Shown here in pieces: positions 4,582 through 50,826 of a stretch of 50,826 nt of DNA. The notes under the pieces are model-generated. The model was not told the DNA's origin, did no database searches, and worked only from the letters and a program-made list of their open reading frames with translations. This DNA is from an uncultured Candidatus Saccharibacteria bacterium (GTDB lineage: Bacteria > Patescibacteriota > Minisyncoccia > UBA6257 > GWB1-50-10). A program made the translations under genes and the position numbers. The first letter of the stretch is position 1. The number at the start of each line of letters is the position of its first letter. The stretch is taken from the NCBI GenBank assembly GCA_964639325.1, contig CAZXDO010000006.1, positions 1-50,826 of the forward strand. Reading direction: 5' to 3'.

Positions 4582-4593
4582 TTCAGTTAAAAA

Positions 4594-4642
4594 GTTATCC
4601 ACAACAACTTGGGGGTTCCCGACACCCCCAAGTTGGTTTTTT
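4594..4642. repeat. GC-hairpin / DnaA-box element, copy 2 (terminator-like)
   Basis: TTATCCACA 4595-4603. Stem CAACTTGGGGG 4605-4615, loop TTCCCGACA 4616-4624, stem CCCCCAAGTTG 4625-4635, then GTTTTTT. Confidence 0.9.
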
Positions 4643-11550: not shown

Positions 11551-11592
11551 CAACTTGGGGGTTCCCGACACCCCCAAGTTGTTGTGGATAAC
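11551..11592. repeat. GC-hairpin / DnaA-box element, copy 3 (box on the 3' side)
   Basis: Stem CAACTTGGGGG 11551-11561, loop TTCCCGACA, stem CCCCCAAGTTG 11571-11581, then T and TGTGGATAA 11583-11591. Confidence 0.9.
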
Positions 11593-11639
11593 TTGAAATG
11601 TTAATTGGTGTGGTTTGTTGTGAAAAATAGTGCTAATAA

Positions 11640-23244: not shown

Positions 23245-23510
23245 GCCCCCAGGATTTGAACTAGAATCAATTTAGCGAAAGCAATTTTGTTAATATTCAA
23301 GGCGCGAGGAGCGTGGGGTGTTAGATAACACGCGAGCGACGAGCAACGCAGAAGATAAACAAAATTGTTCCGCCCGAAGGGAAGCAAAATAATAAGCAAT
23401 TTCTTCGTTACTCCTCGTCAATGTATGCTCCGCATACACTTTCCTCGTCGTGTCTTGAAATTGCTTATTATTTTGCTTCTAAACTTAATTCTAGTTCAAA
23501 TCCTGGGGGC
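23245..23510. repeat. 266-bp element built from nested perfect inverted repeats (structured ncRNA or MITE-like element)
   Basis: Outer 23-bp IR 23245-23267 / 23488-23510. Inner 23-bp IR 23381-23403 / 23457-23479. 10-bp IR 23282-23291 / 23358-23367. Small hairpin 23423-23428 / 23432-23437. Confidence 0.85.
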
Positions 23511-34668: not shown

Positions 34669-34690
34669 AAACCCTACTTAGTAGGGTTTT
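34669..34690 (+). terminator. small hairpin after rplL
   Basis: AAACCCTAC 34669-34677, loop TTA, GTAGGGTTT 34681-34689, then T. tRNA-Val starts 2 nt later, so read-through is likely. Confidence 0.4.
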
Positions 34691-34691
34691 A

Positions 34692-34765
34692 GGGCACTTA
34701 GCTCAGCTGGCTAGAGCGCTGCCGTCACATGGCAGAGGTCACTGGTTCAAGCCCAGTAGTGCCCA
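34692..34765 (+). tRNA. tRNA-Val (anticodon CAC), no encoded CCA
   Basis: Hand-folded cloverleaf. Acceptor GGGCACT/AGTGCCC, D arm GCTC-AGCTGGCTA-GAGC, anticodon arm CTGCC-GTCACAT-GGCAG, T arm ACTGG-TTCAAGC-CCAGT, discriminator A. Confidence 0.9.
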
Positions 34766-34787
34766 CAAAATATTTCAAGGAATAATT

Positions 34788-34818
34788 CAACGTGGGGGTT
34801 CCCGACACCCCCAAGTTG
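34788..34818. repeat. GC-hairpin element, copy 4 (one stem mismatch, no adjacent box)
   Basis: CAACGTGGGGG 34788-34798, loop TTCCCGACA, CCCCCAAGTTG 34808-34818. The nearest TGTGGATAA is at 35000-35008. Confidence 0.85.
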
Positions 34819-34836
34819 TCGTCGTTTTACTCCTCC

Positions 34837-34904
34837 CCAGAAACCCTCGTTTTCTGGCGCTTCGCTGTTTTCCAACACGGGGAAAATACTCTTCCCCGAC
34901 CCCC
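34837..34904 (+). repeat. GC-rich two-hairpin repeat, element B
   Basis: H1 is CCAGAAA 34837-34843 / TTTCTGG 34851-34857. GCTTCGCT lies at 34859-34866. H2 is CGGGGAA 34878-34884 / TTCCCCG 34892-34898. CCCCGACCCC lies at 34894-34903. Same layout as 44659-44720. Confidence 0.75.
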
Positions 34905-35059
34905 TTTGTCGTTTAATAGCTTGGTGGTTATTTGCTAACTAATTCCTTTGTTATGTCTTCAGGAATAATGTTGTATTGTTAGAATTTCATATTAAACATT
35001 GTGGATAACTTATTTTTCTCCCATTAAGCTTGATCTAAGTTTTTTTCATTTTTGAAAAT

Positions 35060-35088
35060 TGACAAATTATTTATATTTTGGCATATTG
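35060..35088 (+). promoter_or_regulatory. candidate promoter of the zinc-ribbon orphan gene
   Basis: TTGACA 35060-35065, 17-nt spacer, CATATT 35083-35088. Confidence 0.45.
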
Positions 35089-35128: not shown

Positions 35129-35728
35129 ATGGAAACAGAAGTTAATCTTGAAGTAGCCGACAGAGAAGTTAGAAGGATTGTAGAAAACTTAAAAGAAAAA
35201 GGTTTTCCGGAGATTGTTCAGTATAAAGAGGCTTATGAGTATTTTACTGACGACCAAAATAAAGCCATTTCAGAACTGAAAAAGGCTGTAAAAAAAGAGG
35301 CAAAAGTCGGAGATCTTTCAAGCAAAACCGTGCCCGGTGATGCTTTTTGGGAAAGTCGTACTTTTGTTCGCAAAAAAATTCAGGAAGCAATAAAAGTAGG
35401 CCTTATTTATATTGAGGTTATAAAAGAACAGGCCGTAAGGTATGGAGCTATTCCTGACCCGGAAACAGATTGGAAGTATTATTTACTTCCTGATTTCAGT
35501 TATGCCTGTTGGCGTTGCGGTTCAGAAATTTTGGTTAAAGACCAAGCTATTTCAGTTCATGATGGACCTTTTCCACTTTCTGGAAGCGGTAAGGTTGAGC
35601 ATAGGGGAATTCCTTATTGCCCAAGGTGTGACAACGAGCCGCCTGAAAGAGGTGTCGTCAAAAGAGATCCGGTAGAAGAACTTGCCGAAGAAATGAAAAT
35701 TTTTTCTAGAGTAAAAGAAAAAAATTAA
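35129..35728 (+). CDS. hypothetical protein with C-terminal CxxC...CxxC zinc ribbon
   Basis: 199-aa ORF with CWRCGSE...CPRCDNE. Has its own promoter and terminator. No recognised family. Confidence 0.65.
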   Translation: METEVNLEVADREVRRIVENLKEKGFPEIVQYKEAYEYFTDDQNKAISELKKAVKKEAKVGDLSSKTVPGDAFWESRTFVRKKIQEAIKVGLIYIEVIKEQAVRYGAIPDPETDWKYYLLPDFSYACWRCGSEILVKDQAISVHDGPFPLSGSGKVEHRGIPYCPRCDNEPPERGVVKRDPVEELAEEMKIFSRVKEKN

Positions 35729-38291: not shown

Positions 38292-39548
38292 ATGAACAAA
38301 AAAATTATATTAGGATTTATCATATTTATTCTCCTTTCAGGAGTTGTTCTTGCGGCTAGATTGTTTGTATTTCCTTACAATCCGAACCAACCGCCCCAAG
38401 CGGATGATTCCGGTTCAACAGAAGAGGGGATAAAAAGTGTTATTGAGGCAAATAATAATTTTGCTTTTGATGCGTATAAAAAAATAATTGAATCTGAAGA
38501 GGGTAATATTTTTTACTCTCCTTACAGCATATCTTCCGCTTTGGCAATGACTTATGAAGGAGCAGAAGGAGAGACGGCTGAAGAAATTAAATCAGTTTTC
38601 CATTTTCCCAACAAAAACAGTTTAAGGCCTAATTTTGCCGCCGTTTATAACAACATCAACGCCAAAGACAAAAATTATGAATTAAGCACGGGAAACGCTC
38701 TGTGGATTCAGCATGACTTTTCTTTGTTAAATAAGTACAGCAACAATATTGAAAACTATTATGGAGGTAAAGCAGCTCTTTTGGATTTTGTAAACGAACT
38801 TGAGCAATCAAGGCAAACTATAAATAGTTTTATAGAAGAACAAACCAGGGATAAAATTAAAGATTTAATTCCAGAAGGGTTACTAAATCAAGACACAAGG
38901 CTTGTTTTAACTAACGCAATTTATTTTAAAGGATTATGGAAAGTGGAATTTGATAAATCTGATACCCGCGAAGAAAACTTTAATATTAGTCCGTCTGAAA
39001 CAATAAAAGTGCCTATGATGAAAATGAAACCTGAAGAAGAAAAGTTTAATTATGCCAGAACAGAAGAATTGGAAATATTAGAGTTATCTTATAAAGATGA
39101 AAAAATTTCAATGTTAATATTATTACCAAATGAAAGTCTTGAAGATGTGGAATCTGATTTAACATTAGAAAAAATAAATGAATATAAATCTCAGATGAGA
39201 GAAACGGAATTAAGCTCAATATCAATTCCTAAATTTGAGTTTGATACAAAATATTTTATGAATGAAACCCTAGCTTCGTTAGGAATGCCTACGGCTTTTT
39301 CAAGCAACGCCGATTTTTCCGGAATAACCGGAAGAAAAGATTTGTTTATAAGCTCTGTTATTCATCAAGCTTATATTGGAGTTGATGAAAAAGGAACGGA
39401 AGCGGCTGCGGCAACTGCCGTAGTTATGGAGCTTGCTATGGCTCCAACAAACAATTTTAAAGCTGATCATCCTTTTGTCTTCATAATTCAAGATAAGGAA
39501 ACCGGCAATATTTTGTTTATGGGTAGAGTGGTAAACCCGTCAAATTAA
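38292..39548 (+). CDS. serpin-family serine protease inhibitor, membrane-anchored or secreted
   Basis: N-terminal hydrophobic helix. FYSPYSISSALAMTYEGAEGETAEEI, LTNAIYFKGLWK, hinge/RCL GTEAAAATAVVMELAMAP, FKADHPFVFIIQD. Confidence 0.9.
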   Translation: MNKKIILGFIIFILLSGVVLAARLFVFPYNPNQPPQADDSGSTEEGIKSVIEANNNFAFDAYKKIIESEEGNIFYSPYSISSALAMTYEGAEGETAEEIKSVFHFPNKNSLRPNFAAVYNNINAKDKNYELSTGNALWIQHDFSLLNKYSNNIENYYGGKAALLDFVNELEQSRQTINSFIEEQTRDKIKDLIPEGLLNQDTRLVLTNAIYFKGLWKVEFDKSDTREENFNISPSETIKVPMMKMKPEEEKFNYARTEELEILELSYKDEKISMLILLPNESLEDVESDLTLEKINEYKSQMRETELSSISIPKFEFDTKYFMNETLASLGMPTAFSSNADFSGITGRKDLFISSVIHQAYIGVDEKGTEAAAATAVVMELAMAPTNNFKADHPFVFIIQDKETGNILFMGRVVNPSN

Positions 39549-39605: not shown

Positions 39606-39721
39606 GTGGGGAATAGCTAATTTTTAAAATTTCCTAAAATCTGGGGATAACTTTTTTCTTATATTTTAATTCCCCCCTTATTAAAGGGTTTTTTAATTTA
39701 TAAGTTTATCTTTTTTACGCT

Positions 39722-39749
39722 TTGACAGCTAATGTCATGGTGGTACAAT
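39722..39749 (+). promoter_or_regulatory. candidate mra (dcw) promoter
   Basis: TTGACA 39722-39727, 16-nt spacer, TACAAT 39744-39749. Confidence 0.5.
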
Positions 39750-39761
39750 AAATAACAGAAA

Positions 39762-39809
39762 TGGGGAGATGTGGATAATTATGTGGATATCTTTCAAATC
39801 TGTGGATAA
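39762..39809 (+). promoter_or_regulatory. array of same-orientation TGTGGATA boxes (DnaA-box-like, possible MraZ operator)
   Basis: TGGGGAGAT 39762-39770, TGTGGATAA 39770-39778, TGTGGATAT 39783-39791, TGTGGATAA 39801-39809. A further TGGGGATAA lies at 39642-39650. Confidence 0.6.
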
Positions 39810-41288: not shown

Positions 41289-41594
41289 ATGACTATTATA
41301 AAACCAAAAGAGAAAAATAATATATCTTTTATAGTTTTAATGTTTGCAGTCGCTATTATTGGAGGAATGTTTTATATTTCTCAATACAATGGTGTTGCTG
41401 ATAATAGGTATAAGATAAAAGAGCTAAAATTAGAAATTGCTGAAGCAGAAGAACAAAACGTTGAGCTTAAAAATAATTTTTATAAAATTGTTGATCCCAC
41501 CGAATTAGAAAAAATGGCCGGCGATCACGGGTTAGTTTTGGATAAAAATCCTGACTACTTAGATCCCGAAAGTATTGTTTTACATTCCGACTAA
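41289..41594 (+). CDS. ftsL: FtsL-like small bitopic division protein
   Basis: 101 aa, one TM helix then a coiled-coil (YKIKELKLEIAEAEEQNVELKNN). Canonical position between rsmH and ftsI. Confidence 0.6.
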   Translation: MTIIKPKEKNNISFIVLMFAVAIIGGMFYISQYNGVADNRYKIKELKLEIAEAEEQNVELKNNFYKIVDPTELEKMAGDHGLVLDKNPDYLDPESIVLHSD

Positions 41595-44619: not shown

Positions 44620-44740
44620 TTTGTGATCCCAACCGGATATTTCACGTCGCTTCGCTCCCTGAAACCCCTCGGTTTCAGTGCTTCCGCCACGGGAAACTTC
44701 CGTTTCCCGACCCCTTCCCCGGTTCAAATCCTGGGTTCAA
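44620..44740 (+). repeat. GC-rich two-hairpin repeat, element A, bounded by a duplicated tRNA-Glu 3' end
   Basis: TTTGTGATCCCAACCGGAT 44620-44638 matches 44776-44794 at 18 of 19 nt. H1 is CTGAAACC 44659-44666 / GGTTTCAG 44671-44678. H2 is CGGGAAAC 44690-44697 / GTTTCCCG 44702-44709. Then CCCGACCCC and GTTCAAATCCTGGG 44722-44735. Confidence 0.8.
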
Positions 44741-44749
44741 AATAAAACA

Positions 44750-44767
44750 ACCCGCCTGACAGCGGGT
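44750..44767. terminator. bidirectional terminator hairpin between murF and tRNA-Glu
   Basis: ACCCGC 44750-44755 pairs with GCGGGT 44762-44767. A T-rich tract follows it on both strands. Confidence 0.55.
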
Positions 44768-44779
44768 AATTTTATTTTG

Positions 44780-44852
44780 TGACCCCAACCGGATTTGAAC
44801 CGGTGTTTCTGCCGTGAGAGGGCAGCGTCCTAAACCACTAGACGATGGGGCC
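44780..44852 (-). tRNA. tRNA-Glu (anticodon CTC), no encoded CCA
   Basis: The reverse complement folds as follows. Acceptor GGCCCCA/TGGGGTC, D arm GTC-TAGTGGTTTAG-GAC, anticodon arm CTGCC-CTCTCAC-GGCAG, T arm ACCGG-TTCAAAT-CCGGT, discriminator A. Confidence 0.9.
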
Positions 44853-46954: not shown

Positions 46955-47008
46955 GATAACCAACTTGGGGGTGTCGGGAACCCCCAAGTTGGTGTGGATA
47001 ACTTTTTT
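46955..47008. repeat. GC-hairpin / DnaA-box element, copy 5 (loop inverted)
   Basis: GATAAC, stem CCAACTTGGGGG 46960-46971, loop TGTCGGGAA 46972-46980, stem CCCCCAAGTTGG 46981-46992, TGTGGATAA 46993-47001, then CTTTTTT. Confidence 0.9.
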
Positions 47009-47707: not shown

Positions 47708-47758
47708 ACCCCGGTCACACGCACCCCATGCGTGCATACTGCCGTTGTACTACGGCCC
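47688..47758 (-). tRNA. tRNA-Pro (anticodon GGG), no encoded CCA
   Basis: The reverse complement folds as follows. Acceptor CGGGCCG/CGGCCCG (C1-G72), D arm GTAC-AACGGCA-GTAT, anticodon arm CACGC-ATGGGGT-GCGTG, T arm CGGGG-TTCAACT-CCCCG, discriminator A. Confidence 0.9.
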
Positions 47759-47951
47759 GGAGCGAAGCAGAAATGCAAAAACGTTAGTTTTTGAATTTCT
47801 GATGAGCGATCGAGACGCAAACTTTGTTTACGGCCCGAAGTGAGGGAAAAGTATAAACGAAGTTTATGTTTTTCACGAACGCCCGGAGACGCAAACTTTG
47901 TTTACGGCCCGGAGCGAAGCAGAAATGCAAAAACGTTAGTTTTTGAATTTC
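47750..47951. repeat. direct-repeat block upstream of tRNA-Pro, incorporating the tRNA 5' end
   Basis: An identical 50-mer lies at 47750-47799 and 47902-47951. An identical 26-mer lies at 47811-47836 and 47885-47910. TACGGCCCG (complement of tRNA positions 1-9) occurs three times. Confidence 0.9.
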
Positions 47952-47978
47952 TAATAAAAAACCAGTTTCCATTATAAT

Positions 47979-48506
47979 ATGAAGAAAATTCTAAATCAAA
48001 AATTTTTCAACCGAGATACTCTTAAAGTTGCGGAAGAATTAATTGGAAAATATTTAGTTATAAAAAAAGGAAACATTAATAAATCAACAATGATTATTGA
48101 GGTAGAGGCGTATGATGGACCCAATGACAAAGCTTGTCATGCTTATAAAGGCAAAACAGAAAGAAATAAGGTTATGTTTGGCCCGCCCGGTTATTGGTAT
48201 GTATATTTAGTGTACGGTATGCATTGGATGCTAAATATTGTAACCGGTCCCGAGGGTTATCCGGGAGCAATTTTAATAAGGGGAGTAAAGGATATAGATG
48301 GACCGGGTAAATTAACAAAAAGTATGGGAATAAATAATCGCTTTAATAATAAACCCGCTAAAATAGAAACAGGGCTTTGGATTGAGGATAGGGGGGTAAA
48401 TATAAGAAAAAAAGATATTAAGAAAATACCTAGGATTGGAGTTGATTACGCTAAAGAGTGGGCCGATAAACCATATCGTTTTGTTCTTGATGAAAATAAA
48501 TTATAA
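47979..48506 (+). CDS. mpg: DNA-3-methyladenine glycosylase (MPG/AAG family)
   Basis: FFNRDTLKVAEELIGKYLV...VEAYDGPNDKACHAYKGKTERNKVMFGPPGYWYVYLVYGMHWMLNIVT. Confidence 0.88.
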   Translation: MKKILNQKFFNRDTLKVAEELIGKYLVIKKGNINKSTMIIEVEAYDGPNDKACHAYKGKTERNKVMFGPPGYWYVYLVYGMHWMLNIVTGPEGYPGAILIRGVKDIDGPGKLTKSMGINNRFNNKPAKIETGLWIEDRGVNIRKKDIKKIPRIGVDYAKEWADKPYRFVLDENKL

Positions 48507-50621: not shown

Positions 50622-50692
50622 TGCCGGGTCGTCTAACGGTAGGACGCCAGGTTTTGGTCCTGGTAACGAGGGTTCGATTCCTTCCCCGGCAG
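50622..50692 (+). tRNA. tRNA-Gln (anticodon TTG), no encoded CCA
   Basis: Acceptor TGCCGGG/CCCGGCA (U1-A72, typical of bacterial tRNA-Gln), D arm GTC-TAACGGTAG-GAC, anticodon arm CCAGG-TTTTGGT-CCTGG, T arm GAGGG-TTCGATT-CCTTC, discriminator G. Confidence 0.9.
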
Positions 50693-50826
50693 CACGAATG
50701 AAATGAGTGATGACGGGTATGGATTCAAACCATTTTGCCCCGTGTTGGAAAGTATCTAAACCCACGGGTTTTCAAAGTCAGGGGGTCGGGGCAAAATATG
50801 TGTTTATGTGAGATTCCTTCCCCGGC
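50693..50826 (+). repeat. GC-rich repeat, element C, ending in a second copy of the tRNA-Gln 3' end
   Basis: 11-bp stem 50732-50742 / 50787-50797. Contains CCCCGTGTTGGAA and GGGGGTCGGGG blocks. GATTCCTTCCCCGGC 50812-50826 repeats 50676-50690, and the window ends inside it. Confidence 0.8.

Follow-up and report, generated by a model that had tools for sequence, protein, structure and literature searches.

The locus behind the tRNA-Val gene of this stretch of DNA (the window, 50,826 nt analysed at full length) raises the question of whether something was inserted between two sequences that are immediate neighbours elsewhere in the window, and, if so, what. The two sequences are a 31-nt hairpin and a 12-mer box, TGTGGATAACTT; between the fourth copy of the hairpin and its box lies a 181-nt segment, the GC-rich part of which holds a module of two hairpins, here called element B. 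Judged from sequence alignment and a covariance model, B almost certainly belongs to a family of elements associated with the ends of tRNA genes, and the segment is probably an insertion between hairpin and box, bringing in B or partly made of it. With less assurance, we lean towards regarding the family as small non-autonomous mobile DNA elements which target tRNA 3' ends, and whose movement we infer, rather than as an RNA gene. The locus is arranged as follows.

34692–34766, plus strand: tRNA-Val(CAC), found by ARAGORN and scoring 61.8 bits with the Rfam tRNA model; on the strand opposite to B
34788–34818, no strand assigned: hairpin copy 4, CAACGTGGGGG-TTCCCGACA-CCCCCAAGTTG; arms 34788–34798 and 34808–34818 with one G.A mismatch, loop TTCCCGACA, stem 11–12 bp, DNA fold −10.7 kcal/mol (z −3.3)
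34819–34832, minus strand: 3' tail of B, GAGTAAAACGACGA, matching the ...GGAGTGAAACGACGACGTGAGAT tails of other members (L053 and others) and abutting the hairpin
34833–34908, minus strand: core of B, with J0 GGGGGTC, P1 at 34879–34897, joining sequence CCCCGTGTTGGAA, a GCGAAGC mini-hairpin insert, P2 at 34837–34857 and GGGGAG (covariance model R1 and alignment)
34909–34999, no strand assigned: AT-rich remainder of the segment, 91 nt, with a weak direct repeat (TTCAGGAATAAT at 34958–34969 against TTCAAGGAATAAT at 34774–34786)
35000–35011, plus strand: the box TGTGGATAACTT, containing the reverse complement of the DnaA-box consensus TTATCCACA and normally the immediate neighbour of the hairpin
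35059–35087, plus strand: promoter-like TTGACA-17-CATATT for the open reading frame (ORF) 35129–35728, kept in the relative L007 and there directly after the hairpin 3' half

The separated hairpin and box behind tRNA-Val

The 27-nt core of the hairpin occurs five times in the window at no more than one mismatch (chance expectation 0), and the box has five exact copies, and seven at no more than one mismatch against 0.31 expected. The other hairpin and box units are:

1418–1461, no strand assigned: copy 1, box 1418–1429 and hairpin 1431–1461
4592–4635, 11551–11594 and 46961–47004: remaining copies of hairpin and box

The initial annotation had read hairpin, T and box in immediate succession in copy 3, and the same 1-nt spacing separates box and stem in copies 1, 2 and 5 as well; the distance of about 180 nt which it gave for copy 4 is exactly 181 nt (stem end 34818, box start 35000). 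Box, 1 nt and hairpin also follow one another, with other hairpin sequences, in two relatives: L144 (1294–1334) and the more distant L011 (about 299–335), where the terminator hairpin stands upstream of the homologous ORF. As adjacency thus holds in all four other window copies and in both relatives, it is best regarded as the default or ancestral state, and the 181 nt as an insertion. Copies 3 and 4 (11551–11594 and 34788–35011) have the loop flipped with respect to the box, as compared with copies 1, 2 and 5, and the hairpin stem is a perfect palindrome. A search for the 27-nt core across one genome per GTDB species gave three matches only, attributable to chance and lying in unrelated phyla; the host species is accordingly missing from that set.

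The identity of B rests on comparison with two further copies in the window, A and C.

44620–44778, minus strand: element A, a canonical member downstream of tRNA-Glu (minus strand, 44779–44852)
44740–44778: terminator hairpin of A
44719–44739: inverted copy, in A, of the T-arm and the acceptor 3' strand of the tRNA
44655–44719: core of A
44620–44638: distal direct repeat of A
50694–50826, plus strand: element C, a degenerate member after tRNA-Gln (plus strand); core 50704–50779, R1 E value 1e-4

Read on the plus strand, B consists of a hairpin at 34837–34857, GCGCTTCGCTG at 34858–34868, a second hairpin at 34879–34897 and GACCCCC at 34898–34904, and it aligns with A such that loop and joining sequences are conserved and the first hairpin shows a compensatory A-T/T-A change. 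The covariance model R1 comprises 70 positions, with hairpins P1 and P2 of 9 bp each, and was built from 35 metagenome copies with the window left out; it scores B at 47.8 bits (E 2e-11) over its full model length at 34833–34908 of the minus strand, and A at 56.4 bits (E 1e-13) at 44655–44719. Alignment, compensatory change and model matches together sustain the proposal that B shares the two-hairpin layout of A. Its placement at 34837–34904 on the plus strand was revised: core and tail together span about 34819–34908, and the family consensus reads on the minus strand, where the order is box (as AAGTTATCCACA), 91 nt of AT-rich sequence, core, tail GAGTAAAACGACGA, hairpin, 21 nt and the reverse complement of tRNA-Val. 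The subtype with a GCGAAGC insert is found also in L061, L071 and L081. That the segment carries a genuine copy of a multi-copy family, and that the 3' tail of this copy abuts the hairpin, further support an insertion.

Relatives bear on the same question. In L144, where rplL is 88% identical and the rplJ-rplL-ORF-uracil-DNA glycosylase-arginyl-tRNA synthetase synteny is the same, AAGTTATCCACA-C-hairpin comes directly after rplL and is followed by a terminator and then by minus-strand tRNA-Val sequences. The window block from tRNA-Val through hairpin to box is colinear with the reverse complement of L144 1294–1590 (blastn), so the block is inverted between the two genomes; in L144 it has hairpin and box side by side, with no 181-nt segment and no R1 match. 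In L007 (downstream ORF 74% and rplL 87% identical), tRNA-Val on the plus strand is followed by a degenerate hairpin 3' half (TTCCCGACACTCTCAAGTTG) joined to the ORF promoter. Hairpin joined to box, the arrangement which the initial annotation sought at tRNA-Val, is seen in L144 within an inverted block; in L007 the box is gone too and no clean empty site is left. Relatives do not keep a 181-nt spacing filled with unrelated sequence, an outcome named beforehand as one that would speak against insertion. The sequence after tRNA-Val in L007 was also considered as an element remnant and rejected, as L144 shows it to be mostly a remnant of a second tRNA-Val 3' half plus a 12-nt inverted-repeat motif.

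Several observations weigh against the insertion, or against its being a regular one. B is reversed relative to tRNA-Val, contrary to the location typical of the family (same strand, downstream), and it lacks significant target repeats: its best inverted repeat, of 7 nt, is at chance level, the direct repeat is weak (12/13), and no convincing target duplication flanks the 181-nt segment. The AT-rich 91 nt is unexplained and has no second copy anywhere searched, only the 90-nt GC-rich part of the segment being repeated. L007 is without 241 nt (34819–35059), B and box both missing, for which a deletion in L007 is possible. Conversely, it could be supposed that nothing was inserted, the 181-nt spacer being ancestral, lost by relatives, and the flank match with copy 3 incidental. 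Such a history would accommodate the joint absence of box and segment from L007, the lack of a target-site duplication and the uniqueness of the AT-rich half; it is very improbable in view of the 1-nt spacing in the four other copies, L144 and L011, the multi-copy element inside the segment, and tRNA-Val surroundings that are much shorter or different in L144 and L146. An insertion between hairpin and box, as first proposed, accordingly remains our preferred reading on the grounds of the spacing rule, the L144 block and the multi-copy element within the segment. We would class B as an insertion that went off target or was rearranged, next to a T-arm-like terminator hairpin. A mismatch in P1 of the window copy, which strain L003 lacks, suggests that B is probably inert and decaying, without function.

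Breaks in other assemblies fall at the same place: same-species contigs from three of them (L001, L002 and L003) start at window 34675–34982, inside or beside B. The end of the window itself (50826) lies within the second repeat copy at tRNA-Gln, and small repeats of this kind fragment assemblies.

A structured family at tRNA 3' ends

A Joint Genome Institute (JGI) metagenome scan with a pattern drawn from A, B and C (CCCGTGNNGGAA..AAAC..GGGTTT) recovered the family in at least 120 contigs, most of them of groundwater or sediment origin; this and the family counts below rest on the matches listed, among which R1 recognises 105 copies in 100 loci. The expectation that parts of the segment would recur elsewhere was thus borne out for the GC-rich 90 nt with module B (in A, C and more than 100 other places), and not for the segment as a whole. 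The flank consensus can be written GGAAAGGGGTC-[P1]-GTG-NN-GGAA-[P2]-GGAG-[variable P3, often a GCGAAGC mini-hairpin]-..GACGTGAGAT: two covarying hairpins, P1 and P2, a variable third hairpin, and invariant joints GGGGTC, CCCGTG-NN-GGAA and GGAG. The conserved core measures about 70–100 nt and the full insertion 110–180 nt, with no ORF. Covariation is strong, with 97% of cells paired, 12 of the 18 pairs varying on both sides and 284 compensated cells; none of 500 shuffles reaches the observed value, and slid structures come nowhere near it. As judged by named relatives of contig proteins, the hosts are Yonathbacteria, Colwellbacteria/Parcubacteria and 'Patescibacteria group' members, and include several Parcubacteria lineages.

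The family appears to be undescribed. Covariance-model searches of B, which the initial annotation had recommended, gave the match to R1 and none to any Rfam family; at both gathering scores and permissive E values (10 or 0.1), the 4227 families of Rfam 15 matched only tRNA and tmRNA in the window, in both module regions and in 16 canonical loci. IMG/VR, scanned with four patterns of which one was the family core, returned nothing or chance matches (the three chance matches of the core pattern were rejected by R1), and blastn against GenBank phages and PLSDB plasmids gave no family match. Our literature search found the element nowhere described, though its coverage was incomplete and an earlier description is possible. 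A tRNA-like cloverleaf for module A on the plus strand was considered as well, and is unsupported by ARAGORN and the Rfam tRNA model.

Linkage to tRNA genes is close and directional. A tRNA lies within 400 nt of 72 copies, and in 62 of these it is complete and stands upstream on the same strand, the distance from tRNA end to CCCGTG motif being 45–105 nt; all isoacceptor families are represented, and one copy lies downstream of a tmRNA gene. After the core comes a direct repeat of the tRNA. In 42 of 65 cases it is exact over 11 nt or more, with a maximum of 24 nt or longer; it starts at T-loop position 57–61 (assigned using the ARAGORN end convention) and runs through the 3' end, in some loci also through trailer and terminator. 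The duplicated target varies from 11 to 45 nt and is commonly 15–18 nt long. Usually the core is preceded by an inverted copy of T-loop, T-stem and acceptor 3' strand from the same tRNA, matching exactly over stretches as long as 20 nt; an exact inverted repeat of 9 nt or more flanks 25% of 93 loci, and 0% in shuffles. The 3' end of the element is itself T-loop-like (GTGAGAT, GTTCGAT). Many loci have a terminator-like palindrome between tRNA and element. The T-loop 57–61 boundary recalls, by analogy, that of the retroviral primer-binding site.

Three of the four tRNA genes in the 51-kb window carry or adjoin a copy, and A and C show both the location and the direct repeats typical of the family. 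The distal repeat of A (44620–44638) is identical at 18 of 19 positions to 44776–44794, the 3' end of tRNA-Glu. C is a 117-nt insert between exact 18-nt direct repeats (18/18), ATTCCTTCCCCGGCAGCA, at 50677–50694 and from 50813 onward, the second completed in L015–L019; the repeat corresponds to tRNA-Gln from T-loop through 3' end, and in contigs running past the window end the native terminator follows the second copy. Repeats of tRNA 3' ends of the attL/attR type are thus present in the family (42/65), A and C, and absent from B.

Copies also differ between related genomes. The murF-tRNA-Glu locus of L143 (MurF 95% identical) has the element with a different spacer and terminator, a second, nested direct repeat, and a compensatory G-C to A-T change in P2 relative to the window. 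L141 and L142 (MurF 67–69% identical) have no element at tRNA-Glu, which there lies in the opposite orientation directly after murF. Three units stand in tandem behind one tRNA-Gly in L128, and one strain has a 32-nt deletion inside C. The arrays, the differences at tRNA-Glu and the loss in C indicate, at the level of sequence comparison, gain, loss and re-insertion of elements.

The orientation of the tRNA genes concerned varies too. The window (44779–44852) and L143 have tRNA-Glu on the minus strand, L141 (4306–4379) and L142 (4305–4377) on the plus strand; at this locus the element-carrying lineages are the inverted ones. For tRNA-Val, the gene lies on the plus strand of the window (34692–34766) and L007, and on the minus strand of L144 (1371–1590) and L146 (3068–3141). 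Within L144 1371–1590 a tRNA-Val of the window type is split into three minus-strand pieces, with a complete second tRNA-Val (1431–1503) nested at its anticodon loop and flanked by the inverted repeat CCCCGTTAGATT / AATCTAACGGGG, and with a 38-nt insert in the D-loop region of the split gene. The inverted-repeat motif of L144 is kept in L007 after tRNA-Val.

The 31-nt hairpin was also examined as a possible relative of the element. Homology between the 31-nt hairpin, with or without box, and the element 5' half (GGGGTCGGGAA..CCCC..GTGTAGGAA) is suggestive by eye and local alignment, but R1 gives the five hairpins no more than about 5 bits (E about 9), and we keep the homology as an idea only. 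The element motif GGGGTCGGGAA, read as its reverse complement, is similar to the hairpin loop TTCCCGAC(A)CCCC.

Mobile DNA or RNA gene

If the family is mobile DNA, integration would be specific for site and orientation at the T-loop and 3' end of tRNA genes, and would leave the tRNA intact by virtue of the second copy of its 3' part. A mobilising enzyme encoded elsewhere would act in trans, with the hairpin core as its recognition structure in the form of single-stranded or cruciform DNA, and would join the T-loop-like 3' end of the element to the T-loop of the tRNA gene. Inverted copy and direct repeat could then fold into a 15–20 bp duplex identical to the target, by analogy with CTX-phage attP(+) and integron attC. 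The 1757 paired cells include 10 G.U or U.G and 7 A.C or C.A, so that wobble is rare and shows no strand bias; d(GCGAAGC) is an unusually stable DNA hairpin. Rare, strand-neutral wobble and recurrent mini-hairpins of the GCGAAGC type fit a DNA Watson-Crick constraint better than a classic RNA.

Alternatively, the family may be a structured non-coding RNA or 3'-trailer module made with or beside tRNAs, with B as a stray copy or pseudogene. The inverted copy could then pair with the direct repeat into an acceptor/T-stem minihelix, serving as a substrate of RNase P, RNase Z or the CCA-adding enzyme, or as a decoy or regulator of tRNA ends. Unpaired invariant nucleotides together with strong stem covariation, same-strand placement downstream of tRNAs, GC-rich sequence within a 33% GC genome (the value for the window contig), the compensatory P2 change between the window and L143 at one locus, and circularly permuted variants (L039, L062 and possibly C) such as occur in ribozyme classes, would all suit an RNA. 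However, G.U pairs are not in excess over A.C, a terminator-like hairpin separates tRNA from element in many loci, no Rfam family matches, and 32 nt of C were lost in one strain; moreover, tandem arrays, nested direct repeats and the duplication of genomic trailers and terminators would not be expected from an RNA gene alone. On balance we consider an RNA unlikely. A self-splicing group I tRNA intron is likewise unlike the family: splicing is not needed to complete the tRNAs, Rfam gives no intron match and the core is about 70 nt.

The repeats at tRNA ends could also be read as scars, the attL/attR arms of kilobase-scale prophages or islands inserted by tyrosine integrases and later almost wholly deleted, B being one such scar. 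A direct repeat of the tRNA 3' end that starts in the T-loop is the classic signature of integrase insertion, the T-loop is among the known crossover sublocations of integrases (Williams 2002, as cited in PMC9897764), and a tmRNA gene is also targeted. Yet more than 60 loci share both the 45–105 nt distance from tRNA to core and the 70-nt core across isoacceptors, on which independent deletions would not converge; in addition, no integrase or phage genes recur nearby, and searches of IMG/VR, GenBank phages and plasmids did not find the core. We regard this origin as most unlikely.

The reading as a mobile element, to which we incline, has points against it as well. At several loci a terminator lies between the direct repeat and the insertion point, so that the two do not adjoin; such an unduplicated terminator means that a staggered cut is insufficient, and simple staggered-cut target duplication is excluded for the loci concerned. 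The origin of the inverted target copy is unexplained, and the low wobble count could partly reflect young copies from few subfamilies. Neither a mobilising enzyme nor an excised form was found, nor a clean pair of empty and filled sites in near-identical strains. When 1107 neighbouring ORFs were clustered all against all, no protein family recurred in more than 5 of the about 120 loci listed, and a Pfam scan of window ORFs gave no recombinase, transposase or reverse-transcriptase domain, 11 scanned ORFs having no match and 150–317, 41289–41594 and 47979–48506 lying outside the scan.

A further and more speculative proposal, which we consider doubtful, is that the family represents a new class of structured nucleic-acid mobile element, in which a three-hairpin scaffold would be combined with a 15–20 nt inverted copy of the tRNA 3' end as guide or fold-back attachment site. 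The inverted copy being rewritten for each target, one scaffold could colonise every tRNA or tmRNA gene; the enzyme would be an unrecognised Patescibacteria recombinase or reverse transcriptase, and the elements could drive local inversions of tRNA genes.

Patescibacteria genomes are tiny and thought to be poor in mobile elements, and here one element recurs after tRNAs of every kind across many lineages from groundwater and sediment. If mobile DNA, it would constitute a compact natural system of site-specific insertion at a universal safe site, the tRNA T-loop, with the tRNA restored; if RNA, a widespread unannotated class of structured RNA tied to tRNA ends. In either case it leaves partial tRNA duplicates and broken assemblies, may underlie inversions of tRNA genes, and bears on the annotation and binning of genomes of the candidate phyla radiation (CPR).

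In the window, MurF and L7/L12 are nearest to Patescibacteria (Jorgensenbacteria/Paceibacterota-like) proteins, and every ORF that Pfam can annotate has a housekeeping function. The B locus lies, as initially described, after tRNA-Val (34692–34766) and before an ORF with a weak zinc-ribbon match and few homologues (35129–35728). L7/L12 (34072–34665, 197 aa) has a Glu/Lys-rich N-terminal extension of about 80 residues coded by imperfect GAAGAA repeats, and is likewise long in relatives (172–196 aa). A full-length serpin gene (Pfam E 1e-121) occupies 38292–39548 between argS and mraZ, in what is a small-genome bacterium. Two more short GC-rich stretches (62–65% GC), at 1610–1661 before the ORF at 1676 and at 23297–23351 after greA, match neither Rfam nor the element model. 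At 47751–47955 the 5' end of tRNA-Pro (minus strand), together with 43 nt upstream of it, recurs 152 nt away over 53 nt at 98% identity, with an internal repeat at 74-nt spacing. This region is 78 nt shorter in strain L016; the repeat contains GGAGCGAAGC, the mini-hairpin motif of the element tail, and the element model finds no core there.

Comparison with known systems

The hairpin and the box each resemble a known signal in part. Like intrinsic terminators, the hairpin has a GC-rich stem of 11–12 bp and stands after gene ends, and GTTTTTT follows copies 1 and 2; unlike them, copies 3 and 4 have no T-run, and a terminator scan accordingly found none at 34788–34818. The box agrees at 9/9 positions with the DnaA-box consensus TTATCCACA, of which the seven exact window occurrences are all intergenic (the 39642–39809 region; 1421, 4595, 11583, 35000 and 46993). 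In contrast to origin DnaA boxes, they are not clustered at an origin, being dispersed beside terminator hairpins and upstream of mraZ, where the mraZ promoter (TTGACA-17-TACAAT, 39723–39750) is separated from the start codon of the gene by a stretch with three direct copies of TGTGGATA(A/T). The box motif may be a site of DnaA, MraZ or another factor, the latter two being as possible as DnaA given the copies at the mraZ promoter.

The family shares its small size, lack of coding capacity, multiple copies, intergenic position, hairpin formation and presumed movement in trans with MITEs (miniature inverted-repeat transposable elements), repetitive extragenic palindromes (REP) and bacterial interspersed mosaic elements (BIME), and palindrome-associated transposable elements (PATEs) derived from IS200/IS605; the mosaic or degenerate copies B and C, and perhaps the 31-nt hairpin family, are reminiscent of BIME mosaics. 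It differs from MITEs in that its inverted repeats are copied from the tRNA of each locus and its duplication varies from 11 to 45 nt, so that neither element-borne terminal inverted repeats nor a fixed short target-site duplication is seen. It is set apart from REP, BIME and PATEs by strict specificity of site and orientation at tRNA T-loops, and derivatives of IS200/IS605 make no duplication.

Casposons, mobilised by the Cas1 casposase, likewise target tRNA 3' ends and make long duplications (14–15 bp, compared with commonly 15–18 nt here); unlike them, the present elements have no Cas1 or polymerase genes, a variable duplication that is sometimes not contiguous with the insertion point, and CPR bacterial rather than archaeal hosts. 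With CTX-phage attP(+) and integron attC the family has in common two inverted target-like copies about 90 nt apart which can fold into a duplex mimic, conservation of structure and of a few bases, and a symmetric Watson-Crick constraint. The target, however, is a tRNA gene rather than dif or attI, and the elements are far smaller than the CTX phage and without a cassette ORF, so this likeness is an analogy only.

The nearest known kind is integrase-mediated insertion into the 3' ends of tRNA and tmRNA genes, and the nearest context described is that of kilobase-scale integrative elements leaving tRNA fragments (PMC9897764). Unlike tyrosine-integrase elements (prophages, integrative and conjugative elements, genomic islands and cis-mobilisable elements), the family inserts 110–180 nt rather than kilobases, carries no gene inside or nearby, has one core of about 70 nt for all isoacceptors, and bears an extra inverted copy of the target; no integrase lies inside or adjacent, the elements being without an ORF, without a recurrent neighbour family and, in the scanned window ORFs, without a recombinase domain. 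Like them, it has its target at the tRNA or tmRNA 3' end and its junction in the T-loop, leaves the tRNA intact, ends in a direct repeat on the far side, and forms tandem arrays.

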